The translations under genes were made by a program, and so were the position numbers. The notes under the pieces were generated by a model. It searched no databases. It was not told where the DNA came from and worked only from the letters and a program-made list of their open reading frames with translations. DNA of 64,000 nucleotides from Candidatus Woesebacteria bacterium. GTDB lineage: Bacteria; Patescibacteriota; Microgenomatia; UBA8517. Shown piece after piece: positions 22,561 through 37,134 of this stretch. How positions within the stretch are numbered: position 1 is the stretch's first letter; each line of letters begins with the position of its first letter. The stretch spans positions 145,700 through 209,699 of the forward strand of contig DMZH01000002.1 in NCBI GenBank assembly GCA_003484955.1, read 5' to 3'.

Positions 22561-23723
22561 ATAGTTTATTTTCGCTGCAAAGCGTATTTCTTTTTTTGTT
22601 TTTGGCCCTTTTTCCTTTCGGACAAATTATCAGGTTAAGTTTTAATATAGGCAGTTTAAATATACCTCTTCAGCCTATCGACGTTGTGGTTGGATTAGGG
22701 GCGCTTTATTCAATTTTATTTGAAAAAGAAAAACCAAAAGTTTACAAATACCTTAAATATTTTTTGGTAGCTGCGGGTTTCTCATTCATTTTGTCGGTAT
22801 TCATTTTTAAGTACGAAGTTCTTTATGGCCTATTTTATCTGGTCCGTATTGTCGCTTATACATTCTTTTTAAATTATGTTTGGAATTTTGCTAAAAAAAG
22901 CTCTACCAACGGCCATTTACTTTCAAGCAGTCTTTTGACGATTTCGGTTATCTCGGCAGTTTTTGGTTGGATTCAACTTTTTGTTTTTCCGGATATTAAG
23001 CCATTTTTTGTTTACGGTTGGGATATGCACTTGTTCCGCCTGGTGGGCACTTTCCTGGATCCCACATTTTTGGGCCTAATTATAGTTTTCGGATTGTTGC
23101 TATCGATCAATCGATTCATTGATAGTAGAGAAAAAAAGTATTTATTAATTACAGTATTCCTTTTGGTGTCTCTGGCATTTACCTATTCAAGAGCCAGCTA
23201 TCTGGCATTTTTGGGGGGTATCTTTGTCATCGCTTTTACGGAAAAGAAGTTTAGAAAAATGATGGTTTTGGCGATTGCCCTTTTGGTTTTTGCTTTACTC
23301 TTGCCGACGGCAAGAAACCACAGCATAGAGCTGACACGTTCATTTAGTATTATTGCCAGGTTGGACAATTATAAGGAGACAGTTGAGGTGTTTAAAAAAT
23401 TCCCCGTATTTGGAGTCGGGTTTAATAATCTTTGTATAGCCAGAAATAAATATATCGGAATGGAGTCTTTTACCTCTCATGCATGTTCGGGGTCCGACTC
23501 AAGTTTGCTTTTGATTCTTGCAACAACCGGCACAATAGGCCTGATGGTATTCGCGGGAAGCATCCTTGGAGTATTCAAATCTCTAACCGAAAATCGTGAA
23601 GCACAAACTGTAATTGCGGTATCTATGGCACTGTTTATTCATAGTCTGTTTTCCAATTCCTTGTTTTTCCCTTGGGTAATGGGGTATGTTGTAATTCTTC
23701 TTGCGGTCAGCGTTACGAAGTAA
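22521..23723 (+). CDS. O-antigen ligase/polymerase family protein
   Basis: RLVGTFLDP, TYSRAS, FGVGF, many TM segments. Confidence 0.85.
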   Translation: MGKTMGITKKIKLDSLFSLQSVFLFLFLALFPFGQIIRLSFNIGSLNIPLQPIDVVVGLGALYSILFEKEKPKVYKYLKYFLVAAGFSFILSVFIFKYEVLYGLFYLVRIVAYTFFLNYVWNFAKKSSTNGHLLSSSLLTISVISAVFGWIQLFVFPDIKPFFVYGWDMHLFRLVGTFLDPTFLGLIIVFGLLLSINRFIDSREKKYLLITVFLLVSLAFTYSRASYLAFLGGIFVIAFTEKKFRKMMVLAIALLVFALLLPTARNHSIELTRSFSIIARLDNYKETVEVFKKFPVFGVGFNNLCIARNKYIGMESFTSHACSGSDSSLLLILATTGTIGLMVFAGSILGVFKSLTENREAQTVIAVSMALFIHSLFSNSLFFPWVMGYVVILLAVSVTK

Positions 23724-24429
23724 AGTTGAGGCTTATATTTTTTTCAGTAGTATTTCCTGCTTGATCGGTTGACTTTACATTAAAGGTATTCGAGCCTTCA
23801 TTTAGGGTCGTAGTATATTGAAAAATTCCCGAATCGTCAACTGAAATAATTCTGTCATTAATTGTAACTTTGGCGTCAGTTTCGGTCTTTCCTGTGATTG
23901 TAATTTGTCTTTGATTGGATCCAAAATAGCTGGAACCGTCTGAGGGTGAAGTTATTTCCAAATCAGGTGTTTTCTTGTCAAAAGTTATTTGATGGTCATC
24001 TGATTTTTGGCTTTGGTTTCCCGATTGATCGGTGGCGGTTGCCGCAAAAGTATTTATTCCATCCTGCAAGGTTACGCCAAACGAAAATTGTCCATCGTTG
24101 TCAGCCAAGACCTCTTGAGGACTTCCATTAAAAGTAAGTTTTACTGAGGCTCCCGATTCCGTATTACCTGTCAATGTCAGGGTTTGTTGGTTAGTGAATT
24201 CCGGAAAATATTTAAATTTAGGGGGTGGGGGCGGTGTAAAATCGGAGTTGCTGATTTTATTGTTATTACCTCTAAGACTGGAGACAAGTGAGGCAAGTCT
24301 GCCAAGAGCCGGTATTCCGATAAAATAAAGTATCGCAATGGCGGCAATTGTCAGCAATATATAAAAAGTAGCGCTTCTTGTGTTTTTTCTCTCCTCGGAA
24401 TTTATAAACCTTCTTGTAAACTTTTTCAT
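23713..24429 (-). CDS. Membrane-anchored protein with two bacterial Ig-like domains
   Basis: N-terminal TM; repeated G.N.F...ATD.AGN motifs; the native start is probably 24429, because the ATG at 24444 comes from the island arm. Confidence 0.8.
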   Translation of the reverse strand: MKKFTRRFINSEERKNTRSATFYILLTIAAIAILYFIGIPALGRLASLVSSLRGNNNKISNSDFTPPPPPKFKYFPEFTNQQTLTLTGNTESGASVKLTFNGSPQEVLADNDGQFSFGVTLQDGINTFAATATDQSGNQSQKSDDHQITFDKKTPDLEITSPSDGSSYFGSNQRQITITGKTETDAKVTINDRIISVDDSGIFQYTTTLNEGSNTFNVKSTDQAGNTTEKNISLNFTS

Positions 24430-24438
24430 TTTATTTTT

Positions 24439-24625
24439 GAGCATGTTTATAATTTAGCTCGAACTCATTTTACAACAAAATACTAACAATTACATTTGCG
24501 TCAAGAAAAGGGGTTAAAGGGGAAATGAATTGACGCGAATGTCGTGTTGTCGCTCAGTCCCGCTTCGCGGGACTTCGCTAACTCTGTTCTCTTGCTCGCT
24601 CCTTTCAGTCGCTCGCAATACGCCA
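24439..24625 (+). repeat. 187-bp att arm (P), left copy of an inverted repeat
   Basis: Exact reverse complement of 34539-34725 by eye. Confidence 0.95.
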
Positions 24626-25100
24626 AATGGTAAAGGGGTTATTTGTACAACCTTTGGTTGCTCAACATTTTCTCCGTTGCAAAAGTTTTCTGTAATCCGA
24701 GTATTTGCCCACCCACCCTAGAAAGGAGTTGGCGCTGCCCCCTCTGCACTCGCTAGGGCCCCCTATGGGCGGCCTTGCCGATGTTTTACTTTTGTTTATC
24801 TAAGTGTTCAGTATCTTCCTCGCCTCGTGCAAAAAACATTTGCCCCTTCGGGGTTGCACTCGGCTTTTCTCAAACACTTTTAAGTAGCGTTGCTCGTTCC
24901 GGGGGGCGTTCCTTTTTTTCCGCCCCCGCGCTTTTATTTTTTCCCTTTTCGCGCGTGGTCGGCGGAAACCTGCTTCGCAGGATAGCGCCAATGCAGGGAA
25001 CAGAAAACCAATAGGCCAAAATGGTGGAAATTGGCCGATTCTAGCTTCAAATTGGACAAAATCTAAAACAAAGAAGCTTCCACAGTTTTACTTCACAAAC

Positions 25101-25126
25101 ACTTCGCTTTAGTACAAGAGCGAAGT
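25101..25126. repeat. Palindromic motif, copy 1
   Basis: ACTTCGCT-TTAGTACAAG-AGCGAAGT; related copy at 28000-28028. Confidence 0.7.
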
Positions 25127-25137
25127 ATACTAACTGT

Positions 25138-25776
25138 ATGGCAGACGACACACCACAAGACACTACAACAACTCAAGACACACCTGCAGATCAACCAGTA
25201 GTTCAACCCGAACCACCGAAAGTCGAGGAGACTCCTGACGAAATTCCACCAACTGAAACTTCAGCAGAAGAAAAACCAACACCAACAGAAGAACCCAAAC
25301 CAGAAAATCCTCCCGAAGTTCCTGAAATTCCCCGAACTCCCGAAACATCCAAGGAGGAAACTAAAACAGAAGAGAAACCAACAGAAACAAAAGCAGAAGA
25401 ACTAAAAACAGACGAGAAACCCAAAGACGTGTCCGCCGAAGTCTCGACGAAGGTGGAAGAAGTTAAACCAGAAGTACCCGCTCCCGAATCTCCCAAACAA
25501 CCCGAAAAACCTATACCCGCCGAAACTTCAGTGAAGGAGGGCCAACCAAACCTTGACGACTTAAGAGACAAAGCAAACAAAGAGAGACAAGACAGAAAAC
25601 AGGAACATTTATCAGAAGTTGAGAAGTTAGCTAAATCAAAACAAATTAACAATGATGATGTCCGTGAGCTTTTGCACGTTTCCCAAAGTACAGCAACAAA
25701 TTATCTGGAAGAATTGACCAAACAGGGGAAAATCAAGAAGTCTGGGAAGGCAAAAGCTACTTCGTACTCTTCTTAA
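25138..25776 (+). CDS. Pro/Glu/Thr/Lys-rich disordered protein with C-terminal winged HTH
   Basis: Low-complexity N-terminal ~135 aa; INNDDVRELLHVSQSTATNYLEELTKQGKI wHTH. Confidence 0.75.
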   Translation: MADDTPQDTTTTQDTPADQPVVQPEPPKVEETPDEIPPTETSAEEKPTPTEEPKPENPPEVPEIPRTPETSKEETKTEEKPTETKAEELKTDEKPKDVSAEVSTKVEEVKPEVPAPESPKQPEKPIPAETSVKEGQPNLDDLRDKANKERQDRKQEHLSEVEKLAKSKQINNDDVRELLHVSQSTATNYLEELTKQGKIKKSGKAKATSYSS

Positions 25777-26053
25777 CTTTAGTTGTGATTAGTTTAAATC
25801 CGCCTTTACCAAATTTAATAACTTGGCCTATTTTACTTATTGTGGAGGAGCTAACAGGAATTAACTTTTCAATTTCCTCATATGTTTTATCAGCTAGGAT
25901 ATAGTTTGCAATCTTGATTCGTTGGGCAAAATCCAAAGTTTCCTCATCTGTAAATAGATCTTGAATAAATAAGGCCAAATTATTTTTAGTCTTAACTTTG
26001 TAAAACGAATCAACCAGAAGTTCTTGGTCTTTACCCAGTGCCACTTTTGCCAT
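25757..26053 (-). CDS. TrpR-like (YerC/YecD family) protein
   Basis: FIQDLFT.EE...FAQR, TYEEI....VSSSTISKI...K.G.GGF. Confidence 0.85.
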   Translation of the reverse strand: MAKVALGKDQELLVDSFYKVKTKNNLALFIQDLFTDEETLDFAQRIKIANYILADKTYEEIEKLIPVSSSTISKIGQVIKFGKGGFKLITTKVKKSTK

Positions 26054-26109
26054 AATTAACTATATCACGTTAATCCAATCAATTAAATAATTTCTGTCAG
26101 TCATATTTC

Positions 26110-26138
26110 TTGACAAAGTAATTCTTTTCATTTAATAT
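26110..26138 (+). promoter_or_regulatory. Putative promoter of the retron operon
   Basis: TTGACA-17 nt-TAATAT. Confidence 0.55.
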
Positions 26139-26161
26139 GAATTGACCGTTTGATACGGCGC

Positions 26162-26495
26162 ACTTTTAAACAGATATTTATTTTCTTATTTGGAAATCGA
26201 CAGTTGTTTAATTACAACTAAGTACAGGGTAACTTGTACATTAAGGTATTTTTTTAATACCGCAGATGAAAATCTGCCGCTTTTTTCCGGGACATGCACA
26301 GCAAGATGTATATGCATTAAGTTATGTGTCATTGCCAGGATCACAGGCATAATGGGGCTAAGATATGACAGTAGAAATATCGTGGCACGTCAGAAATATT
26401 TAAGGAGGCTCAAGATCTTTCTTTTAGGATTTCCTTTTTAAGACGGGCACTTGGCATTTTTGCCAGGTTAGAAAGGATAAATATGCTGAAAAAGT
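26162..26495 (+). ncRNA. Putative retron msr-msd ncRNA overlapping the start of the small ORF
   Basis: Long-range complementarity 26162-26193/26463-26495 (a1/a2-like), four short hairpins at 26202-26277 (two with GNRA loops), long imperfect stem at 26382-26450; upstream of a retron RT. Confidence 0.7.
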
Positions 26496-26680
26496 ACAAC
26501 CAACTTATTAGTCTTATTGATGAGTTGGCCAAAGACGAAGATCTGAAGCCAGGTAAAAAGGATATACTTAAGAGGGCATTGAAGGAACTGTTCCACGCTC
26601 TTGATACTAAAAATATCAAAGGTGTGAGAAAAGCAATCGATCAGCTCTCAAAAGAACTGCTAATTGTTTACCATCCTTAA
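26483..26680 (+). CDS. Small helical protein, candidate retron effector
   Basis: 65 aa, amphipathic helices, SD-like AGAAAGGA; first gene of the HTH-RT operon. Confidence 0.7.
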   Translation: MLKKYNQLISLIDELAKDEDLKPGKKDILKRALKELFHALDTKNIKGVRKAIDQLSKELLIVYHP

Positions 26681-26713
26681 TTATTTCCATAAGGACCCGT
26701 TTGACGGATTTTT

Positions 26714-27043
26714 ATGGAAGTACCTATTATGAACTACGGAAAAGCACTCAAAATTGCACGCTCCGCGCGAAACATTTCTCAGAAAGATTTAAGTGATGCT
26801 ATTAGTTTGGATCCAAGCTATATTTCGCTTATAGAAAAAGGTAAAAGAATACCGACTATCGAAACTCTTGAGAAAATTGTAAAAAGTCTCAATATCCCAA
26901 TACATCTGTTTTTTCTATTGGCATCTGGCAAGAATCAAATGAAGAAAATGCCGTCTAGTAAAAAGGCGGGGGTAGCAGAGTTGTTGTTGGATCTTCTTCT
27001 TTCCACTGAAAAAAATGAGCACTCTCCAAAAAACAAAAATTAA
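26714..27043 (+). CDS. XRE-family HTH protein (retron-associated)
   Basis: GKALKIARSARNISQKDLS...SYISLIEKGKRIPT; overlaps the RT start; may start at 26729. Confidence 0.92.
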   Translation: MEVPIMNYGKALKIARSARNISQKDLSDAISLDPSYISLIEKGKRIPTIETLEKIVKSLNIPIHLFFLLASGKNQMKKMPSSKKAGVAELLLDLLLSTEKNEHSPKNKN

Positions 27044-27992
27044 ATCAGTTGCTGAACTTTCGCAAACTCTAAAGGTTGGTGTTAAGGAATTCGTCAAAAC
27101 CGCTAAAAATGCAAATTTGTTTTATAGACCATTTGATCTTAGCAAAAAAGGATCTGAAAAATGGAGACACATAGATAATCCAACAGGCAAACTCAAAATA
27201 ATCCAAAAGGCTATAAACAAACAAATTTTGCGCGACTTAATGTTTCAACTTCCACCTAATATCATGGGTGGTATCGAGAACAAATCTATTCTTGAAAATG
27301 CCAAAGTACACGTTGGACAAGAAATGGTTGTCACGATAGATATCAAAAATTGCTTTCCTAAAACAAAAAATGAGGTCATCTTTACCATCTGGAAAAATTT
27401 ATTGGGATTCGAGCCGAATAGTGCAAGGTTATTAACCCAATTAACTACAACAAAGGGACACCTACCTCAAGGTTCCCCTGCGAGTCCATCTTTATCAAAT
27501 CTTGCCCTACTTCCGATTTCAAAAGAAATTTTGAATTATTCAAAAAAACATCATTTGAACTTTACTATATATGTTGACGATATTACATTATCCGGAAAGA
27601 AAAGTTCAGCATTAGATTCAATTAGCCCAGTTGTTAAAATCATTCAAAAATATGGCTATGCAATAAGAAATAAGAAAGTTAAAAAAATGCCTTCATATAA
27701 AACTCAAACGACAACAGGAATCCAACTAAACTCTGAAATTTCCATTGGAAAGCAGAAGATTGATGAAATTAGGAAGGAAATAATTAATCTTGCCAAACTA
27801 CAAAAGCCGTATATCACTAAAAAATCAATTTTTAGCAAAATTGATTATGTAAAAAAAATTTCGCCAGAAAAAGGACAAAAACTACTAGAGTTTGCCAATA
27901 TGATATTGGAGGAAGATATTGATTATATTGCTGTTGATCCAGAAAAAGACGAAAAAAGAGATTGCAATGGAAAGGCCTGCCTAGCTAAATAG
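27015..27992 (+). CDS. Retron-type reverse transcriptase
   Basis: NAKVH (NAxxH region X), IDIKNCFP, LPQGSPASP, YVDD, TTG (VTG-like region Y); no maturase or endonuclease domain. Confidence 0.92.
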   Translation: MSTLQKTKIKSVAELSQTLKVGVKEFVKTAKNANLFYRPFDLSKKGSEKWRHIDNPTGKLKIIQKAINKQILRDLMFQLPPNIMGGIENKSILENAKVHVGQEMVVTIDIKNCFPKTKNEVIFTIWKNLLGFEPNSARLLTQLTTTKGHLPQGSPASPSLSNLALLPISKEILNYSKKHHLNFTIYVDDITLSGKKSSALDSISPVVKIIQKYGYAIRNKKVKKMPSYKTQTTTGIQLNSEISIGKQKIDEIRKEIINLAKLQKPYITKKSIFSKIDYVKKISPEKGQKLLEFANMILEEDIDYIAVDPEKDEKRDCNGKACLAK

Positions 27993-27999
27993 GTCAATT

Positions 28000-28028
28000 A
28001 CTTCGCTTTAGTACATTCGTACAAGAGC
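28000..28028. repeat. Palindromic motif, copy 2 (with internal duplication)
   Basis: ACTTCGCTTTAGTACA-TTCGTACA-AGAGC. Confidence 0.65.
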
Positions 28029-28052
28029 AAAAAGTGCTAAAATACACACATA

Positions 28053-30320
28053 ATGGCTAATTCATTAAATCTTTCTGACAACGAAAAGCGAGATATTATT
28101 AAATTTTTACAAGAAGGCAAATCTCTTCCTGAAAAATATAGATTTCTTCTTTTTAATGACGATCGTGAAGTTGAGCTTTTGTGGAATGGTAAAACAAATG
28201 AAGTTACTAATGTAGTATTGCCCTTTCAGGTAATAGAGCAAATTGACGAGCCAAGAAGTGATGCCAAATTCGGAATGCAAAACACACTTTTTGATACTAC
28301 TGGTCGACAAATTACAGGGTGGACAAATAAACTTATTTGGGGCGACAACAAATTAATACTTTCTTCACTCAAAAATGGTCCACTTCGAAAAGGAATTGAA
28401 GCACAAGGCGGTATAAAGTTGATTTACATTGACCCGCCCTTTGACGTTGGTGCTGACTTTTCAATGAATATAGAAGTTGGAGAAGATAGTTTTACCAAAA
28501 AACCCTCTGTAATTGAGGAAATTGCATATAGGGATACTTGGGGCAAAGGTGCAGATAGTTTTATTGCAATGATTTATCAAAGATTAAAATTGATGCACGA
28601 TTTATTGGCTAACGATGGAAGTATCTATGTCCATTGCGATTGGAGATTAAATAGCTATATGCGTTTAATCCTTGATGAAATTTTCGGTAAAGAAAATTAT
28701 AGAAATGAAATTGTTTGGAAACGCACATATTCTACAAAAGCACAGAGTATTAGCTTTGGTAAAACTCATGAACTTATTTTGTTTTACGCAAAAAGTGAAA
28801 GTACTAAATTAAAACAACTTTATCAAAAGCCAGATGAAGGGTATGTAGATAAATATTTTAATAAAACGGACGAAAATGGCAAAAAGTATCAATCTTTAAG
28901 CTTAACCCAACAAGGACAAGGACCAGCTAGATATTTTGGAGACAAACTAATAGAACCGACTAAGGGAATGCATTGGATTTGGTCGCAGGATAGAATCACT
29001 AAAGCTTTTCAAGAAGGTAGAATAGTTTTTACTAAAAATGATTTTCCAAGACTTAAAAAATACCTTGAGGATTGGAATGAACAAGGTCGTCCAATTGATG
29101 GTCTTTGGGTGGATGATGAAGTCGGGCCTCTAAACTCGTGGCACAGTGAATCACTCGATTATCCAACTCAAAAACCTGAATCGATGCTCACTCGCATAAT
29201 TCAATCCAGCAGTAATGAGGGAGATTTGGTTGCAGATTTTTTCTGTGGATCGGGAACAACACTTGCAGTTGCTGAAAAATTGAATAGAAAGTGGATAGGG
29301 TCTGATCTGGGAAAATTTGGAATACATACAACAAGAAAAAGAATGATAGGAGTGCAAAGAGAACTTAAGAAAGATGGCAAAGATTTTAGAGCTTTTGAAA
29401 TATTAAATGTTGGTAAGTATGAAAGAGATAGTTATCTAACAACAAATGATGATTTGAGAGCTGAAGAAAGAATAAAGCAAGCAGAAAGGAAAGAAAAAGA
29501 ATTCGTAAAACTTATTGTTACTGCCTATAAAGCAGAACTCATTGAATCATTTGTAAATATTGTAGGTAAAAAACGAGATAGACTAATTGCGGTTGGTCCA
29601 ATAAATACTCCTGTATCCTCTAAGTTTATTCAACAAGTAGTAAATGAATGCAAAGATAAAAATTTAACTAAAGTAGATATTTTAGGTTTTGACTATGAAA
29701 TGGGTATGAACATTGAGGAATATAGAAGTCAAAGTATTGATATTGTTTTTAAGGTAATTCCGAGAGAAGTTTTTGATAAACAAGCTGTAGAAAAAGGACA
29801 AGTTAAGTTTTACGATGTCGCATATATTGACGCAAAACCAGTTGTAAAGGGTGGAGCTAAAAGCAAGGAGTTGTCCATCGAGCTTACTGACTTTTCAGTT
29901 TTTTATAACCAAGATGCGAGTGATGATGTTTCTGAAAGTTTAAGACCTGGTGGAACAAAAGTTGTTGTTGAAAATGGACAAGTTGTTAAATTAACAAAAG
30001 ATAAAGAGTCTGATGTTGTATCAAAAGAAGTTTTAACTAAAAAATGGAGTGACTGGATTGATTATTGGGCAGTTGATTATAATTTTTCTGATAGAAAAGA
30101 AGTAATAATTGACCAAGACGATAAAGGTGAATATGTTGAGGCTTGGACAGGGGACTATATTTTTGATAACGAATGGCAAAGTTTTAGAACAAATAAAAAT
30201 AGAAATCTTGAATTAACTTCAACTCCAAGAGAAATGATAAAAGGAAATTATAAAGTTGCTGTTAAAGTTGTTGATATTTTTGGCAATGATACAACTAAAA
30301 TTATTGAGGTAAATATTTAA
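28053..30320 (+). CDS. mod: Type III R-M DNA methyltransferase (Mod)
   Basis: IYIDPPF, YPTQKPE, DFFCGSGTT; C-terminal AVKVVDIFGN; adjacent to res. Confidence 0.92.
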   Translation: MANSLNLSDNEKRDIIKFLQEGKSLPEKYRFLLFNDDREVELLWNGKTNEVTNVVLPFQVIEQIDEPRSDAKFGMQNTLFDTTGRQITGWTNKLIWGDNKLILSSLKNGPLRKGIEAQGGIKLIYIDPPFDVGADFSMNIEVGEDSFTKKPSVIEEIAYRDTWGKGADSFIAMIYQRLKLMHDLLANDGSIYVHCDWRLNSYMRLILDEIFGKENYRNEIVWKRTYSTKAQSISFGKTHELILFYAKSESTKLKQLYQKPDEGYVDKYFNKTDENGKKYQSLSLTQQGQGPARYFGDKLIEPTKGMHWIWSQDRITKAFQEGRIVFTKNDFPRLKKYLEDWNEQGRPIDGLWVDDEVGPLNSWHSESLDYPTQKPESMLTRIIQSSSNEGDLVADFFCGSGTTLAVAEKLNRKWIGSDLGKFGIHTTRKRMIGVQRELKKDGKDFRAFEILNVGKYERDSYLTTNDDLRAEERIKQAERKEKEFVKLIVTAYKAELIESFVNIVGKKRDRLIAVGPINTPVSSKFIQQVVNECKDKNLTKVDILGFDYEMGMNIEEYRSQSIDIVFKVIPREVFDKQAVEKGQVKFYDVAYIDAKPVVKGGAKSKELSIELTDFSVFYNQDASDDVSESLRPGGTKVVVENGQVVKLTKDKESDVVSKEVLTKKWSDWIDYWAVDYNFSDRKEVIIDQDDKGEYVEAWTGDYIFDNEWQSFRTNKNRNLELTSTPREMIKGNYKVAVKVVDIFGNDTTKIIEVNI

Positions 30321-33011
30321 ATGGCATTACATAAAGATTTTCCAAAAGATCCGTACGCAATACTTGACCCTTCGATCAGGTGGTTTCCTGCTGACGAAGT
30401 CTTAAGAGAAAAAGGATATGATAAATTACTTCCACCACTCGTTGCTGATCTCCGAAAAAAAGTAAAAGAATGGAGAGATAAAAATTATGAAGGTGCGAGT
30501 GAAACTTCACAATCACTTTTGAATTGGTGGTTTAAGGAAGATCATGTTGTATACGATCAACATGGTGTTTCTTCAAATTTTAGATATTACTTTGCGCAAA
30601 GAGAAGCTTTAGAAACTGTCATATGGCTTTATGAAGTTGCCAAGGTAAAAGATAAATACGATCTAATTAGATACAACTCAACTCAAGTATTAAGTGCGGG
30701 TATGTTTACTGAGGATTGGTTAAGATTTGTAATCAAAATGGCAACAGGAGCAGGAAAGACAAAAGTTATGAGTTTAATTATTGCTTGGGCATATTTTCAT
30801 AGAAAATATGAGTTAGATTCTAATCTTTCAAAAAACTTTCTATTAATTACTCCAAATGTAATAGTATTTGAAAGAATCAAAAATGACTTTGAAGGTCTAA
30901 AGATATTTTTTACAGATCCGGTTTTACCTGATAATGGATATAATGGTCAAAATTGGCAAGATGATTTTCAATTAACATTACACTTACAAGATCAGTTAAG
31001 TACCATTTCAGATACCGGAAATATATTTTTAACTAACATACACAGAGTTTTTGAAGGAAATATTAAAGAAGCGAGTTTAGATGACGAAGATGTTTCTTCG
31101 TACTTCTTAGGTCGTAAACCAGTTACAAAAACTAACGATTCGACAGTTGACCTTGGTATGATTGTTCGAGATATTGATGAACTGATTGTTATAAATGATG
31201 AAGCCCACCATATACACGATGAAAATATGGTTTGGTATAAATCTATACTTGATATTGACAACAAGTTAAAACAAAAAGGATCAGGTCTCGCACTTCAATT
31301 AGATCTAACAGCCACTCCAAAAAAGAATGATGGCTCGATATTCGTGCAGGTAATATCTGACTATCCTTTAGTCGAAGCAATTCATCAAAGAATTGTCAAA
31401 AATCCAGTAATACCTGATGGGGCAAGTCAGGGGAAATTAAAGGAAAACCAAAGTATTTTGTTTAGTGAAAAATATAGAGACTATATTAATCTTGGAGTTG
31501 AAGAATGGAGGAAAACATATAAAACCTTAGAACCGATGGGTAAAAAATCAATTTTATTTATAATGACGGATGATACAAAAAACTGTGATGAAGTAGCTGA
31601 ATATATTAAAACAAGTTTTTCTGATCTTCGCGATGCAGTTTTAACAATCCACACTAATAAAAGCGGAGAGATTTCAGAAAGCGTTGGTGGTAAAAACGAA
31701 GAAGATTTAATACTTCTCCGAAAACAAGCTAATGAAATTGATAGTTGGGAAAGTCCTTTCAAAGTAATAGTTTCTGTAATGATGCTTAAAGAAGGCTGGG
31801 ATGTAAAAAACGTAACTACTATTGTAGGTCTTAGACCTTACGCAGCGGATTCAAAGATTCTTCCAGAACAAACGCTTGGTAGAGGTTTAAGGAGAATGTT
31901 TTTTGGCAGAGATGATGTTGAAGAATATGTAAGTGTAATTGGTACCACCGCTTTTATGGAATTTGTTGAATCAATTCAAGGGGAGGGTGTAATGCTTGAG
32001 CGAAAAGCTATGGGTGCAGGATCAAAGCCAATTACACCTGCAGTTATTGAAGTTGATAAGGAAAATCCAAATAAAAATATTGAAAAACTTGATATAGAAA
32101 TACCTGTAATGACTCCAAGAATCCAAAGGGAATATAAAAATCTTGCCAATTTAGATGTTTCTCAATTTGGAAATAAGAAAGTAAGTGTAAAGACTTTCTC
32201 AGAACAAGAAAAAAGAGAAATTATTTTCAAAGATGTTGTTGACGAAAAAATACATCATACAACTGTACTAACTGGCGATATTGAACCAGATTATAGAAGT
32301 GTAATTGGTTTTTTTGCCCAAGCTGTAATGAGAGAACTTAGGCTTTTTGGTTGTTATGACATTTTGTTTGAAAAAGTAAAGGAATTTATCGAGAAATATT
32401 TATTTGATATTACAGTTGATTTATCAGATCTCAATATATTAAGAAACTTGTCAGAAGTAGAATATATAAAATTTATTAAAGACACATTCAAAGATGCCAT
32501 TAATAACTTAACAATTCAAGATACTGGAGACACTGAAATCAAAAATTATATTAAAATTAGTGAAGCAAGACCATTTGTTGTTAATGATAAATCATATTTA
32601 ATTCCAAAAAAATCAGTATTTAATAAAATTGTAGGAGATAGTAATTTTGAACTTACTTTTGCTGATTTTCTTGAAAACTGTGAAGATGTAATTTCATTTT
32701 CCAAAAATTATCAAAACAAAGAAGCGAGTGCATTAAGAATTGAATATAAAAATTCAGAAGGGTTAATCGCAAACTATTATCCAGACTTTTTCGCAAAATT
32801 GGATGATAAAACTGTTTACATAATTGAAACAAAAGGCCGAGAGGAAGATGATGATAAACTAAAATTTGAAAGATTACAAAAATGGTGCATCGATGTAAAC
32901 AGTCGTCAAACAAAAGTGGAATATAAATCTCTATATATTAAGCAAGAAGAATGGGAAAATAATAAATTAAAAAATTTTGACGAGGTTGTTAGGTTATTTA
33001 CATCTATTTAA
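30321..33011 (+). CDS. res: Type III R-M restriction subunit (Res)
   Basis: MATGAGKT, DEAHH, LTATP, EGWDV, QTLGRGLR; C-terminal PDF...IETKG nuclease. Confidence 0.92.
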   Translation: MALHKDFPKDPYAILDPSIRWFPADEVLREKGYDKLLPPLVADLRKKVKEWRDKNYEGASETSQSLLNWWFKEDHVVYDQHGVSSNFRYYFAQREALETVIWLYEVAKVKDKYDLIRYNSTQVLSAGMFTEDWLRFVIKMATGAGKTKVMSLIIAWAYFHRKYELDSNLSKNFLLITPNVIVFERIKNDFEGLKIFFTDPVLPDNGYNGQNWQDDFQLTLHLQDQLSTISDTGNIFLTNIHRVFEGNIKEASLDDEDVSSYFLGRKPVTKTNDSTVDLGMIVRDIDELIVINDEAHHIHDENMVWYKSILDIDNKLKQKGSGLALQLDLTATPKKNDGSIFVQVISDYPLVEAIHQRIVKNPVIPDGASQGKLKENQSILFSEKYRDYINLGVEEWRKTYKTLEPMGKKSILFIMTDDTKNCDEVAEYIKTSFSDLRDAVLTIHTNKSGEISESVGGKNEEDLILLRKQANEIDSWESPFKVIVSVMMLKEGWDVKNVTTIVGLRPYAADSKILPEQTLGRGLRRMFFGRDDVEEYVSVIGTTAFMEFVESIQGEGVMLERKAMGAGSKPITPAVIEVDKENPNKNIEKLDIEIPVMTPRIQREYKNLANLDVSQFGNKKVSVKTFSEQEKREIIFKDVVDEKIHHTTVLTGDIEPDYRSVIGFFAQAVMRELRLFGCYDILFEKVKEFIEKYLFDITVDLSDLNILRNLSEVEYIKFIKDTFKDAINNLTIQDTGDTEIKNYIKISEARPFVVNDKSYLIPKKSVFNKIVGDSNFELTFADFLENCEDVISFSKNYQNKEASALRIEYKNSEGLIANYYPDFFAKLDDKTVYIIETKGREEDDDKLKFERLQKWCIDVNSRQTKVEYKSLYIKQEEWENNKLKNFDEVVRLFTSI

Positions 33012-33698
33012 ATGTATAAACTTTCACCATCAGATTTTGCATATTTATACGAGGAATGTAAGCTTTGCTATTACTTAAAGATTAAACATGGAATATACCA
33101 ACCAAGCATGCCAATGCCTGGAGTTTTTTCTGCAATAAATACTCGACTTCAAGGAAATTTGGTTGGTAAAAATCTTCACACGCTTTCAGAAAAGTTGCCA
33201 GATGGGATCGTTGAAAATCAAGAAGGTTGGGTTGAATCAAAACCAGTTCCTGATACGGAAGTATTTATAAAAGGCAAATACGATTTATTAGTTAAACTTC
33301 CTGATGACACGCACCTATTGGTTGATCTAAAAATTAGCACACCGGGGGATGATAAAATTGAAAAATATAAAACTCAACTTAATGCCTACAAATTTGCTCT
33401 TGAAAATCCAGCTAACGGAAACCCTATAAAATTAACAAGGCTTGGACTTTTGATTTTTTATCCAGACCAAGTTAGTTTTGAGAAAGGAAGTGCTACCCTA
33501 ACTTTTCCTCCAAGCTGGTTAGAGGTTCCTGCTGATCAAACAGGATTTTTAGCTTTTGCAAAAAGAATAGATAAATTACTTTCGGGTCCAACACCAGAGG
33601 AGGGAAAAGAATGTAAATGGTGCAAATATAGACATTTGGGAGATACCCTTTCTCATACTGATACTGGAAGTGTGAAGGATGACACAATTCCATTTTAA
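33012..33698 (+). CDS. PD-(D/E)XK nuclease family protein
   Basis: LSPS, C..C, KGKYDLL, VDLK, QL..Y, C..C.Y. Confidence 0.85.
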   Translation: MYKLSPSDFAYLYEECKLCYYLKIKHGIYQPSMPMPGVFSAINTRLQGNLVGKNLHTLSEKLPDGIVENQEGWVESKPVPDTEVFIKGKYDLLVKLPDDTHLLVDLKISTPGDDKIEKYKTQLNAYKFALENPANGNPIKLTRLGLLIFYPDQVSFEKGSATLTFPPSWLEVPADQTGFLAFAKRIDKLLSGPTPEEGKECKWCKYRHLGDTLSHTDTGSVKDDTIPF

Positions 33699-33734
33699 GG
33701 AGTTAACTTTGGTGTTGTACAACAGTGAAGTATA

Positions 33735-33763
33735 TTGACAATTTGCCACCAAATGGTAACAAT
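33735..33763 (+). promoter_or_regulatory. Putative sigma70 promoter
   Basis: TTGACA-17 nt-AACAAT. Confidence 0.45.
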
Positions 33764-33780
33764 GGTATTATACTTCTCCA

Positions 33781-33939
33781 ATGACTAAAACTAACAAATC
33801 TCAACCAACTAAAAAAGCAGTTTATTTTATTGCTACAAAATATAAAAATAGGCAGACTCGTGTCAGTCTATATACAAAAGACTGGAAAAGTGTCGCTAAA
33901 AGCGATGCTACGGATAAACTCGGATATTCATTAGAATAA
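33781..33939 (+). CDS. Small basic hypothetical protein (52 aa, absent from the ORF track)
   Basis: MTKTNKSQPTKKAVYFIATKYKNRQTRVSLYTKDWKSVAKSDATDKLGYSLE*, between a promoter and the RusA-like gene. Confidence 0.55.
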   Translation: MTKTNKSQPTKKAVYFIATKYKNRQTRVSLYTKDWKSVAKSDATDKLGYSLE

Positions 33940-33946
33940 CTTCTCC

Positions 33947-34459
33947 ATGGGTAAGAAAAATAAATCTCCGTTAACCCCAATGGATTTTCAGTTGGGTTCT
34001 GGAGGCGTCATTCCCTCCACCCAGGAAGCTTTTGGACCAAACAAAGAATTCTCTGGAAATATACGAAAAGAAGAAAGCGGCGCGACTGCAGAATTTAAAA
34101 AAGCTCTTGGTACCCAGATAGATGTCGAAATTGGTGAGTTGAAACAGTTCCCTTCGGATAAGGAGTTTTTTGTGTTTATAATTCAATACTTTGTTTCAGA
34201 CAAAGAATATAAGGCCAGAGACCTGGACAATATGGCTAAAACCATGCTGGACTTATTGAAAGGAAGATTTTATAAAGACGATGGACAAGTTAAGACACTC
34301 TTAGTTGGTAAGAAGATGGAAAAACGTGTTCCTAAAAATTTTATATATTTTGCATTAAAAGAAATGAAGGATGACAGAGATATTGATGCCCTGAAGATTT
34401 CCGGGCTAGAAAGATCAGTCACTCTTTTCAATGAACAAGTGGCAAAAGGACTTTGCTGA
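33947..34459 (+). CDS. RusA-family endonuclease
   Basis: DLDNMAKTMLDLL...DDGQV matches the RusA DxDNxxK...D...DD.QV pattern. Confidence 0.8.
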   Translation: MGKKNKSPLTPMDFQLGSGGVIPSTQEAFGPNKEFSGNIRKEESGATAEFKKALGTQIDVEIGELKQFPSDKEFFVFIIQYFVSDKEYKARDLDNMAKTMLDLLKGRFYKDDGQVKTLLVGKKMEKRVPKNFIYFALKEMKDDRDIDALKISGLERSVTLFNEQVAKGLC

Positions 34460-34538
34460 TACTAAAAATTGGCTTCAATTGTATAAAATAGTTATTCGAT
34501 TTTTTAATTGAGTATTTTATATTATCAATAGGCACGAG

Positions 34539-34787
34539 TGGCGTATTGCGAGCGACTGAAAGGAGCGAGCAAGAGAACAGAGTTAGCGAAGTCCCGCGAA
34601 GCGGGACTGAGCGACAACACGACATTCGCGTCAATTCATTTCCCCTTTAACCCCTTTTCTTGACGCAAATGTAATTGTTAGTATTTTGTTGTAAAATGAG
34701 TTCGAGCTAAATTATAAACATGCTCCCAAGATAAATTTTTTGAAGAGGCGCGAAGCGCCGACCAAGCGAATTGACACTCCACGGACT
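34539..34787 (-). repeat. Internal complete attP-like junction (P arm + core + P' arm), inverted
   Basis: 34539-34725 is the reverse complement of 24439-24625; 34722-34787 approximates the reverse complement of 36260-36327 with a small indel; shared GCTC core. Confidence 0.9.
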
Positions 34788-34838
34788 GATATTATTTGAG
34801 CTATTGCTTCGGGATAATTGCAAAGATATAAATAAGTA

Positions 34839-36386
34839 ATGGTAAATAAATTCTTCCTCTACGCCAGAAAGTCCACAGATGTAGAAGATATGCAGGTTCT
34901 TTCAATTGAAGCTCAAATTAATGAACTCCGTGAGTTAGCCAAGAAAGAAGGTTTAGAGATAGTAGATGAGCTAATTGAAAAGAAATCTGCAAAAAATCCC
35001 GGAAGGGTAATTTTTAATTCCATGCTTGATAGAATTGAAAAAGAAGAAGCTAATGGAATTATATCTTGGCACCCAGATAGACTTGCCAGGAATAGTGTGG
35101 ACGGAGGAAGAATTATTTACCTCTTAGATAGAAATAAATTATCTGCCCTCAAATTTAATACCTTTTGGTTTGAATCTACTCCTCAAGGAAAGTTCATGCT
35201 TAGTATTGCATTTTCTCAAAGTAAATATTATGTAGATTCCTTGTCAGAAAACACCAAAAGAGGACTTCGCCAAAAAGCTAAAAATGGATATTGCCCCAGT
35301 GTTGCCCCAATTGGTTATTTAAATGATTCAAGAAACAAAACTATTGTTTTAAATAAAAAAGTTGGTCCAATTATCAAAGAAACTTTTGAACATTATAGTA
35401 ACGGCAATATCCTAATGCGTGAAGTAAGTAGCTTTTTGGCTGAACGTGGAATACTTCTTCCTAGTGGTAGACCCTTCGGTCTTTCAAGAATTAGAAAAAT
35501 CTTAACAAATCCATATTATTATGGTCATTTTATATATGCGGGAGAAGTATATGAGGGCAGACACGACCCAATAATTTCAAAGCTACTTTTTGACAAAGTC
35601 CAAGAAATTATTAATAGAAAAAATAAACAGTGGAGTAAGGCTAGAGTAGAAAGAGTTCACAAGCCTTACGTTGGACTTTTGACGTGTGGTGAGTGCGGAA
35701 TGGGCATTACAGCTGATTTTAAAGATAGACATTATAAAAACGGCAATTGTAGCCATTTTAATTATTACAGGTGTACTAAAAAGGATAAAACTACAAAATG
35801 TCTACAATCCCATATCCGCGAGGAGGACTTGGATAGTCAGCTCACCACACTTCTCAAAAAGTACACTTTGAAAAATGCTTGGGCAATAAAAATGAATAAG
35901 AAACTAGATATTGAATCAAGAGATATTGCCCAATCATCCCTTTCTGTCATTTCTCTCAAGAGAAAAGAAATTGATAATTTGAATTCTAAACTCCAGCTTC
36001 TTTTAGACAGTTATTTAGATCAAATAACTGATAAAGAAATGTACAAAAAAAAGAAGCTTGAGTTATTCTCTCAAAAGAAAACTTTTGAGGAACAAATTAT
36101 CAATTTGCAAAACCAGAAAGGGAATTGGATCGAACCTATGAGAAAGTGGATATCCGAAGCAAGTGAAGTGGATCAAATAATATCAACAAACAATAAAGAC
36201 GATAAAAAGGTTCTCGCTTCAAAAATCTTCGGCTCGAACCTCTTTTTGGAAGACAAAAAAGTCCGTGGAGTAGGCCAATTCGCTTGGTCGGCGCTTCGCG
36301 CCTCTTCAAAAAATTTATCTTGGGAGCCGAGAGTGGGGATCGAACCCACGACCTGCGGTTTACGATACCGCCGCTCTGCCAACTGA
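34839..36386 (+). CDS. Large serine recombinase (integrase)
   Basis: YARKS catalytic Ser, DRLARN, recombinase domain, CGECG..YYRC..C zinc ribbon, coiled coil; reads through the att site into antisense tRNA-Thr. Confidence 0.95.
   Translation: MVNKFFLYARKSTDVEDMQVLSIEAQINELRELAKKEGLEIVDELIEKKSAKNPGRVIFNSMLDRIEKEEANGIISWHPDRLARNSVDGGRIIYLLDRNKLSALKFNTFWFESTPQGKFMLSIAFSQSKYYVDSLSENTKRGLRQKAKNGYCPSVAPIGYLNDSRNKTIVLNKKVGPIIKETFEHYSNGNILMREVSSFLAERGILLPSGRPFGLSRIRKILTNPYYYGHFIYAGEVYEGRHDPIISKLLFDKVQEIINRKNKQWSKARVERVHKPYVGLLTCGECGMGITADFKDRHYKNGNCSHFNYYRCTKKDKTTKCLQSHIREEDLDSQLTTLLKKYTLKNAWAIKMNKKLDIESRDIAQSSLSVISLKRKEIDNLNSKLQLLLDSYLDQITDKEMYKKKKLELFSQKKTFEEQIINLQNQKGNWIEPMRKWISEASEVDQIISTNNKDDKKVLASKIFGSNLFLEDKKVRGVGQFAWSALRASSKNLSWEPRVGIEPTTCGLRYRRSAN
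36260..36327 (+). repeat. att arm (P') at the right island end
   Basis: Inverted copy of 34722-34787; ends in the GAGC core at the tRNA-Thr 3' end. Confidence 0.9.
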
Positions 36387-36397
36387 GCTACCTCGGC
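36325..36397 (-). tRNA. tRNA-Thr(CGT)
   Basis: Acceptor GCCGAGG/TCTCGGC, anticodon arm GCGGT-ATCGTAA-ACCGC, TTCGATC T-loop. Confidence 0.95.
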
Positions 36398-36429
36398 TTA
36401 TGTGCTCAATTATAGCATTTCTGGGCGTG

Positions 36430-36500
36430 AGCGGGTGAGCGGAGTCGAACCGCCCTTTCCACCTTGGGAAGGTGGCGTTGAGCCGATCAACTACACCCGC
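36430..36500 (-). tRNA. tRNA-Gly(CCC)
   Basis: Acceptor GCGGGTG/CACCCGC, anticodon arm CCACC-TTCCCAA-GGTGG, TTCGACT T-loop. Confidence 0.93.
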
Positions 36501-36567
36501 ATCAGCACAACAAAGACACACGAATTATATCATTGATTCAAATGTATGTCCGCCTTCCAAGGTTTTA

Positions 36568-37134
36568 TTATCTGGGTAAAATTAGAATGTTTCCCGTATG
36601 AATTATATTAGGGTTATCTAATTCGTTTACCTCTGCAATTTCAGTCCATCTGAAACCATCTCCATAGGCTCTGACTGCTATATTCCACAGGCTGTCTCCT
36701 TTAACTACTGTGTAGGTCTCGCTTGTTATCGGCGATTCTTGTAAAACAGTTTGAGATTCAGATTCCTCTGTTGTTGTAGGTTCGTTTGGTGTGACATCAT
36801 CAGGTAAGATTAACTTTTGTCCAATCTCAATATTATCTGTCTCTAAATTATTGGCACTTTTTATGTCTACCCAGTTATATCCGGAACCATACGAATTTTC
36901 TGCAATCGACCATAGTGTTTCACCTTCTACTACAGTGTGTTCGTTAATAGCTGATGTCTGGGTTGAGTCTACCGTAATACTGCCGTTTCCCTTGTCTTTA
37001 AAGTAATTTACAACCAAGACTCCAACTATAACAAGAACAATTGCCCCTAAGATCATGCTAATATTTTCCTCGTTAAGTTTTATTTGTTTGAGAAGTTTTT
37101 TTAGTTGAAAACTGTTATTTTGATCAAATTTCAA
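36568..37134 (-). CDS. Membrane-anchored protein with two LysM domains
   Basis: TM segment, then HTVVEGETLWSIA and YTVVKGDSLWNIA LysM repeats. Confidence 0.93.
   Translation of the reverse strand: MKFDQNNSFQLKKLLKQIKLNEENISMILGAIVLVIVGVLVVNYFKDKGNGSITVDSTQTSAINEHTVVEGETLWSIAENSYGSGYNWVDIKSANNLETDNIEIGQKLILPDDVTPNEPTTTEESESQTVLQESPITSETYTVVKGDSLWNIAVRAYGDGFRWTEIAEVNELDNPNIIHTGNILILPR

Follow-up and report, generated by a model that had tools for sequence, protein, structure and literature searches.

A large serine recombinase of a Candidatus Woesebacteria bacterium is carried on an 11.9-kb island inserted at the tip of a tRNA-Thr gene, in the window analyzed here (the whole 64,000-nucleotide stretch of contig DMZH01000002.1, positions 145,700 to 209,699). 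The attachment (att) site of the island lies within the recombinase gene, a point absent from the first-pass annotation of this DNA, and integration splits the gene from a conserved 14-residue C-terminal helix. A second, intact attachment site (attP) is retained inside the island in inverted orientation and, because the att site lies within the gene, this internal copy also carries the gene's missing 3' end. An exact empty site is present in a congener, the layout is conserved across a family of related islands, and the orientation of the two modules, recombinase and cargo, is locked. It is quite possible that the inverted internal attP serves as a splint, on which a single strand of the island folds, so that host enzymes can close it into a circle in which the gene is whole again.

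Layout of the island and its attachment sites

The empty site (attB) in the congener G001 (locus L002) matches, letter for letter, the predicted join between the tRNA-Thr gene and a host gene encoding an immunoglobulin (Ig)-like protein; the island therefore spans positions 24439–36327, with a 4-bp overlap. The two genes also adjoin in other relatives, and the empty-site join was recovered in sequencing runs X2 and X7, where the shorter sides are only 26 and 30 letters. Together with left and right junctions (attL and attR) that share a very short core, this empty attB matches what is expected of large serine recombinase elements. The order of host gene and tRNA gene is undisturbed here, although six other tRNA genes of the genome have the same core.

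The left terminal arm, P, recurs inside the island as an inverted repeat identical at 187 of 187 bases, flanking the cargo on both sides; 20 codon-block shuffles of the window produced exact inverted repeats no longer than 15–18 bp. The right terminal arm, P', also recurs in inverted orientation, exact over 52 bp (36276–36327 versus 34722–34773) and extending to 66–68 bp at 95.6% identity, with internal and terminal copies differing by GACACTCC/GGCCTACTCC. The 4-bp core GAGC is common to both arms, and no further copies of either arm were found in the 750-kb genome. In ordinary serine islands, the single attP is consumed on integration, whereas a second attP stays intact in this one. Most of this architecture had been anticipated by the first-pass annotation, whose intact inverted attP, perfect 187-bp repeats around the cargo and slight difference between the P' copies were all recovered; its ~66-bp repeats around the recombinase are present at that length, although only 52 bp of them are exact. 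The dyad symmetry that it read as an att-site feature is not common to the family: the right half of the dyad is replaced in a 91%-identical relative (L057) and its left half is protein-coding. A palindromic GC crossover was likewise rejected, the core corresponding to tRNA positions 72–74 in seven core types. P is absent from the empty sites retrieved from relatives, and its interpretation as host sequence was discarded.

In run X1, an independent assembly possibly from the source sample, a 9,973-bp cargo contig at depth 17.3 carries P at both ends; depth is 38.9 over P, 19.9 over the P–P' junction, and 19.1 and 18.7 over the flanks. With the junction at chromosomal depth and P at double that depth, the junction is not circle-derived. 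Short contigs of runs X7 and X12 also cross the junction (depths 8.6 and 12.4), but with only 26 letters on one side, which falls short of the bridging rule; runs X7 and X8 look like one data set. Support from X7 and X12 is thus partial, and the short-word contigs of X1 are unable to orient the two modules. An assembly artefact or one-off rearrangement is nonetheless barely credible: assemblers can collapse perfect repeats and such contigs give no module orientation, but the X1 depths, at twice the chromosomal value for the repeat and at that value for the junction, and the same layout in the single-contig genomes G106, G066, G068 and G082 and in most testable relatives bear out the earlier claim that the internal site is not an assembly copy. 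In run X1, the recombinase contig (34744–36305) is deeper (24.4) than the cargo (17.3) and flanks (~19), possibly reflecting a related element in the sample.

Relatives were collected from genome and metagenome collections, from the order and from the phylum, with 80 regions taken from a subset of the order and phylum matches. Duplicates and matches below 40% identity or shorter than 350 residues were set aside, which left a family of 166 elements, with record titles naming Woesebacteria, Microgenomates and other Patescibacteria. An inverted arm surrounds the recombinase gene in 84 of the 102 elements with enough flank, which answers the earlier call to look for internal attP copies in related islands of the candidate phyla radiation (CPR); a long inverted arm surrounds the cargo in 47 elements. 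The enzyme was found in 76 of 401 phylum genomes sampled and in 54 of 139 genomes of the order; such islands may therefore be a major route of gene flow and of defense-gene turnover in CPR bacteria, a group in which little is known of mobile elements. Several elements per genome are frequent, with up to seven recombinase matches in one genome. Six loci (L032–L035, L041 and L044) are titled Gammaproteobacteria; they appear to be the same contigs as the window's own family, and the labels look wrong. In four loci (L037:6024-9138, L112, L117 and L146), a related double-repeat element is inserted in the recombinase gene of another element, at a non-tRNA site. Decayed elements (L075, L050 and L079) retain neither cargo nor P arms and only part of P', and their recombinase now follows host genes directly.

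The split recombinase and its tRNA targets

The recombinase reaches the core with residues 1–496, and tRNA-Thr(CGT), read in antisense, supplies the final 19 residues. Pfam domains and fold matches identify a large serine recombinase with its catalytic serine: Y8, R10, S12 and four cysteines are invariant or nearly so across 59 sequences, and catalytic and zinc-binding residues are kept in integrated genes. The best structural matches are 9y66 (Z 15.8, root mean square deviation 21.6, 380 aligned residues), 9dxh and 9iu2, and structural matches include the SPbeta, Bxb1, phiC31 and LI integrases; identity to phage and plasmid enzymes is ~31% or less, and the protein falls far below the NCBIfam cut-offs.

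Integrated recombinases of the family end in unrelated antisense-tRNA peptides, and most of their reading frames are open. Read on into the P arm, the frame instead encodes a conserved tail (HVYNLARTHFTTKY in this island), and the tail motif occurs in 64 of the 81 elements having an arm pair. Three motif positions were fixed by the search pattern, so their invariance proves nothing. Tail codons vary synonymously, with arginine encoded by CGA (44), CGG (11), AGA (7) and CGT (2) and threonine by all four codons, a spread that argues for selection on the protein. In P0016, a natural protein with an intact tail, residues 519–533 are predicted as a confident helix (predicted local distance difference test, pLDDT, ~90) when junk tails are left out of the alignment, in which short tail-only rows may favor a helix. 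We infer that the tail-less split form is inactive or crippled. The tail end is present in 4 of 76 database homologues, P0016 among them (three identified by script and one by eye); as the other 72 lack it, screens of annotated sequences would test a probably incomplete form. A profile search with the junction peptide returned 92 matches, mostly short open reading frames (ORFs) and one full-length recombinase.

The targets of the family comprise 40 tRNA anticodons for 17 amino acids. The sequence common to the tRNA, the internal copy and the left end corresponds to tRNA positions 72–74 (23, 22 and 23 of 23 three-way rows), and the internal core equals the target tRNA at these positions in 51 of 52 elements, after two mis-anchored rows were dropped; C74 is uninformative, because all 40 tRNA rows of the genome have C there. 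In the exception, L047, base 73 at the right end is that of the tRNA, and the other two sites carry the base of the element. Serine recombinase chemistry leaves a 2-nucleotide (nt) 3' overhang, and this single case, in an element whose left arm is only 91% identical, looks as would be expected from a mismatched overhang. A GTTCG motif lies 23–24 nt from the core in P and attP, versus 19 nt in the tRNA T-loop, an offset of 4–5 nt on the P/T-loop side; it also lies in coding sequence, however, and P' gave no clear mirror motif. According to PMC3783163, serine integrases display a 5-bp shift of the zinc-domain motif between attP and attB. Enzymes 89–93% identical are found at different tRNAs, and targets follow the protein tree only partly: among 128 enzymes, amino-acid class changes at least 64 times and core class at least 29 times, compared with minima of 90 and 50 after shuffling (core class assigned by amino acid). 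Guidance by an RNA was considered and rejected, with no direct scan for guide-target complementarity made: Rfam matched nothing but tRNAs over 24000–37000, folding of the junction is not better than in shuffled sequence (z −0.68), and amino-acid class of the target goes with the protein tree (64 changes versus at least 90 in shuffles).

Locked orientation and possible routes of exit

Among the 166 recombinases, 138 point into a tRNA 3' end and none stands behind a tRNA; the remaining 28 have no tRNA called nearby. The only flipped recombinase behind a tRNA, at tRNA-Met in L086, was excluded by the length filter, and the intact-type joins of L259 and L090 belong to loci that are degraded or mixed and are left out of the count of clean flips. 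Cargo polarity was assessed from flank matches in 46 complete elements (16 without a match), which gave 117 same-side pairs and one cross-side pair, in addition to one flipped partial element (L080); a nuclease gene is next to the recombinase in 16 of 16 cases. Phase variation by an invertase would make both orientations common, which these counts contradict, and the earlier suggestion that the recombinase could flip either module is not supported as a routine event.

The splint reading would proceed as follows. The integrated, tail-less enzyme would be inactive or crippled, trapping the island and protecting ~40 potential tRNA targets. When the island becomes single-stranded, most simply through uptake by natural competence, P would pair with P and P' with P', yielding a dumbbell; its stem would be a double-stranded attP from which two host flaps protrude at the core. 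Trimming of the flaps, fill-in from the continuous internal strand and ligation would then produce a circle without recombinase or directionality factor and, as a by-product, copy both arms to identity. Once the second strand had been made, the intact enzyme would recognize the T-loop and integrate the circle into the 3' end of a tRNA gene, with the crossover at approximately positions 72–73; integration would be stable only through the attP copy inside the gene.

Sealing of one strand would preserve cargo orientation, matching the nearly fixed polarity observed. Arms that far exceed an att site in length, that are alike within an element and that scale with the cargo would also be explained by a splint, as would the core's tracking of the target and the missing helper genes; all of this evidence is indirect. 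Perfect pairs within elements were seen for 39 of 98 P' and 20 of 46 P arms, and the P' differences cluster far from the core, 104 of 220 falling in the last quarter. Longer cargos go with longer P arms (Spearman 0.66, n=46; r=0.50 and p=5e-4 in phylogenetic contrasts), and the internal core keeps following the target although core class changed at least 29 times on the tree. At the junction, C-GNA-G mini-hairpins favor one strand (61 versus 17 in 97 elements), and the computed stems reach −254 and −87 kcal/mol, compared with about −25 and −8 kcal/mol for local folds. ComEC and DprA are encoded in this genome, as in most control genomes, and their presence is therefore permissive, not specific. 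ComEC-dependent transformation has been demonstrated in Saccharibacteria (PMC10633639), so the splint model can be tested.

Several observations weigh against this reading. The main gap is the rarity of integration through the second attP, which is common to any model with a double-stranded circle: such a circle has two equivalent attP, and half of the integrations should leave the gene intact behind the tRNA. Intact-gene integrations are rare (one locus, L086; 4 of 76 proteins) and would need a purging process, which would run against the usual directionality of serine integrases (PMC3783163). No circle, dumbbell or transcript was observed, and in run X1 junction depth equals chromosome depth. 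Homologous recombination between the repeats would also fit the length correlation and the distal mismatches. A sign test gives the contrasts weak support (28 of 43, p=0.07), mismatches in the P arm show no bias when counted per element (15 of 26), and part of the pattern comes from edge effects of the alignment. Among distant relatives that could be tested, only 14 of 42 yielded the strict tail motif (74 of 99 overall for a relaxed one), and the tail stayed unfolded (pLDDT <50) in a first model of P0016 whose alignment included junk tails. No P' pair was detectable in 18 of the 102 testable elements, and the structured non-coding region described below is limited to some subclades. The same genome also has a distant second serine recombinase (23% identity; G000:C1:220020-221600) that faces tRNA-His; no inverted copy surrounds it within C1:217001-232000, so a spare copy is not required by every such element.

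The inverted geometry would also permit a rare switch, in which P' x P' recombination flips the gene onto the spare tail, behind the tRNA promoter, and the intact enzyme excises the island during a short-lived ON state. An intact gene would arise in one step, a flipped gene behind tRNA-Met does exist (L086), an intact tail is retained by the few database proteins noted above, and archaeal suicidal integrases have been proposed to excise once their gene is rebuilt (PMC7253208). This route nevertheless seems unlikely, because a cycle of flipping, excision and re-integration via the splitting site would reverse the cargo relative to the recombinase every time, contrary to the nearly fixed cargo orientation, and it leaves the 100–300 bp length of the cargo-flanking arms unexplained; flipping before excision is therefore not the normal route unless selection hides the reversal. 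It is similarly improbable that the internal attP is a regulatory copy (an operator, promoter or decoy) kept identical by gene conversion, with excision performed by intact enzyme from an incoming circle or another element. Its position, 52 bp upstream of the recombinase start codon, and the frequent presence of several elements in one genome are in keeping with such a role, and the P arm shows a modest excess of promoter-like sites (10 of 92 versus 3.4 expected, at a threshold of 9 of 12 matches). Local promoter matches are at chance (8 versus 6.9 expected), however, the conserved TAAAAT is protein-coding, and an operator needs ~50 bp rather than ~250 bp of near-identity that scales with cargo. 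A promoter of the recombinase's own in the preceding spacer was also sought and is not enriched (13 of 114 versus 14.2 expected).

The tail might instead set directionality, the intact enzyme integrating and the tail-less enzyme, or one complemented by a tail peptide produced from the internal copy, excising, perhaps with the internal attP as an accessory site. Integrated genes with all catalytic and zinc-binding residues and mostly open frames agree with this scheme, as does the lack of a common directionality-factor gene, and orientation would be kept. It is quite doubtful all the same: the internal frame has no conserved start codon or promoter (upstream open lengths range from −7 to 51 codons), database ORFs on that frame have unrelated N-termini, and random tails of very different length would need to be tolerated. 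An antisense promoter for the tail peptide was dismissed, as its matches (13 of 99 versus 3.6 expected) are mostly one subclade's homologous motif, which is absent here, with no conserved start.

Extended to the whole phylum, the splint reading is still possible, if somewhat less likely: self-splinting islands would travel as DNA of dead cells, imported single-stranded, folding on the inverted attP and sealed into a circle that restores the integrase, which would insert at almost any tRNA by reading the T-loop and thereby silence itself. Such islands would dispense with an excision step, directionality factor, relaxase and replicon, and would be among the main carriers of defense genes in CPR bacteria.

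Cargo and comparison with known systems

The features of the island and its flanks are collected in Table 1.

Table 1. Features of the island and its flanks (window positions; HTH, helix-turn-helix)
Feature	Position	Strand	Basis or remark
Host Ig-like membrane protein gene, left flank (B)	23713..24444	-	40/41 genomes match
attL core GAGC	24439..24442	+	family-wide core = tRNA positions 72–74 (24439–24441)
Left P (L) arm, terminal copy, 187 bp	24439..24625	+	
Detached final 14 codons and stop of the recombinase (HVYNLARTHFTTKY), terminal copy	24442..24486	+	
Cargo, 9,913 bp, low GC	24626..34538	.	
Conserved non-coding, hairpin-rich region, chromosome-proximal cargo side	24626..25060	.	86% identical in L057; z −2.2
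Pro/Glu-rich protein, probable C-terminal HTH	25138..25776	+	no Pfam match
YerC/YecD TrpR-related protein	25757..26053	-	
Type VI-like retron: HTH 26714–27043, reverse transcriptase 27015–27992	26714..27992	+	HTH_VI 8.6e-22, RT_VI 4e-69
Type III restriction-modification: Mod 28053–30320, Res 30321–33011	28053..33011	+	
PD-(D/E)XK / Cas4-like nuclease	33012..33698	+	
RusA-like nuclease	33947..34459	+	
Internal inverted P (L) arm, same as left arm	34539..34725	-	
Spare copy of the last 14 recombinase codons and stop, in frame with P'-encoded residues	34678..34722	-	
Internal attP core	34722..34725	-	
Internal inverted P' (R) arm; hairpin, GC-rich, loop GAA	34722..34787	-	exact to 34773
Large serine recombinase: resolvase, recombinase and zinc-ribbon domains	34839..36386	+	Pfam
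Terminal P' (R) arm within recombinase 3' end	36260..36327	+	attR core 36324–36327
tRNA-Thr(CGT), target gene (B'), intact	36325..36397	-	

Cargo size varies from 0.5 to 10.6 kb across the family, and no gene is universal among the cargos; ten elements with cargos of 0.6–1.5 kb hold one or two ORFs without a homologue in any other cargo. No directionality-factor gene common to the cargos was found among ORFs of at least 60 residues, such factors being small and diverse. Pfam matches in the window cargo include no replication, relaxase, transfer or virion genes, although an origin of transfer (oriT) may be used in trans, and the common genes that mark prophages, plasmids and conjugative or mobilizable elements are missing. 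No relative was found in the viral contigs searched, and no free circle in viral contigs, plasmids or phages.

Approximately 400 nt of multi-hairpin non-coding DNA always lies just inside the chromosome-proximal arm in 12 relatives (L169:7083-7522 and 11 other loci, alignment A2). It is conserved, with weak covariation (−0.96 kcal/mol; double changes in 8 of 44 pairs) and only sub-threshold Rfam matches, and is a candidate single-strand origin, oriT or non-coding RNA (ncRNA). Its counterpart in the window is likewise a candidate single-strand origin or oriT; over 24000–37000, Rfam detected nothing besides tRNAs.

Near the retron genes (window 26390–27992), a 65-residue ORF (26483–26680) without a PADLOC match is enclosed by imperfect inverted repeats (26393–26413/26667–26687) that may mark the retron ncRNA. 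A 21-nt direct repeat (90%; 25096–25130 and 27995–28030) precedes the first cargo gene and Mod and brackets the HTH/TrpR/retron block, possibly as an operator or insertion scar. In 16 cargos (L047, L152, L169 and 13 others), the recombinase-proximal end carries a 170-residue gene resembling the staphylococcal nuclease fold, a label given by eye from motifs. On the host side, the Ig-like gene starts at ATG 24429 in the empty site, and the island brings an in-frame ATG at 24444 that would add five residues; the island also comes between this gene and the tRNA transcript, which in the empty site lies immediately upstream (24429–24444).

No description of this layout was found in the literature searched, a scope exclusive of supplements, island databases and subscription papers; the available portions of PMC9580842, PMC12884075 and PMC12455944 make no mention of it. 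The closest known systems are the archaeal suicidal tyrosine integrases of SSV, pTN3 and pT26-2 (PMC7253208), in which attP lies within the gene, integration at a tRNA splits it, no directionality factor is present and target switching is frequent. The island shares the att site within an integrase ORF that is split on integration at a tRNA, its family also switches targets and has no common directionality-factor gene among the cargo ORFs of at least 60 residues, and it appears to work like a suicidal integrase built on a large serine recombinase. It departs from the SSV type in recombinase family, serine and not tyrosine; the archaeal enzymes belong to viruses and plasmids with one att site, whereas here only the terminal helix is lost and a second, inverted attP is present. 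The idea of a self-splitting integrase is thereby extended from archaeal tyrosine to bacterial serine enzymes, with a testable answer to how such elements leave.

Compared with SPbeta SprA, Bxb1, phiC31, A118/LI, CcrB and XisF, the recombinase has the same domain order, structural matches and 3-bp core, and its GTTCG spacing may correspond to the 5-bp zinc-domain shift. Those large serine integrases use one attP and a separate directionality factor, unlike the two attP, split gene and lack of a common factor gene seen here; for tool builders, a single integrase family covers 40 tRNA anticodons.

Integron attC, CTX-phi attP and IS200/IS605 elements form their recombination site from a folded single strand, as proposed for the island. 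Theirs are short hairpins on which tyrosine or HUH enzymes exchange one strand, whereas in the island a stem closing loops of kilobases would be sealed by host enzymes before the serine enzyme acts. The yeast 2-micron plasmid and the Hin/Gin switches carry two inverted sites with freely interconverting isoforms; inverted sites divide the island into two modules as well, but its orientation is almost locked and no replication gene is common. Control based on junctions without a directionality factor is known from the serine recombinase TnpX of Tn4451, and tandem SGI1 arrays reportedly hold attP inside the integrated array; in both, the internal junctions are direct-orientation products of circles or tandem insertion, in contrast to the fixed inverted copy described here.

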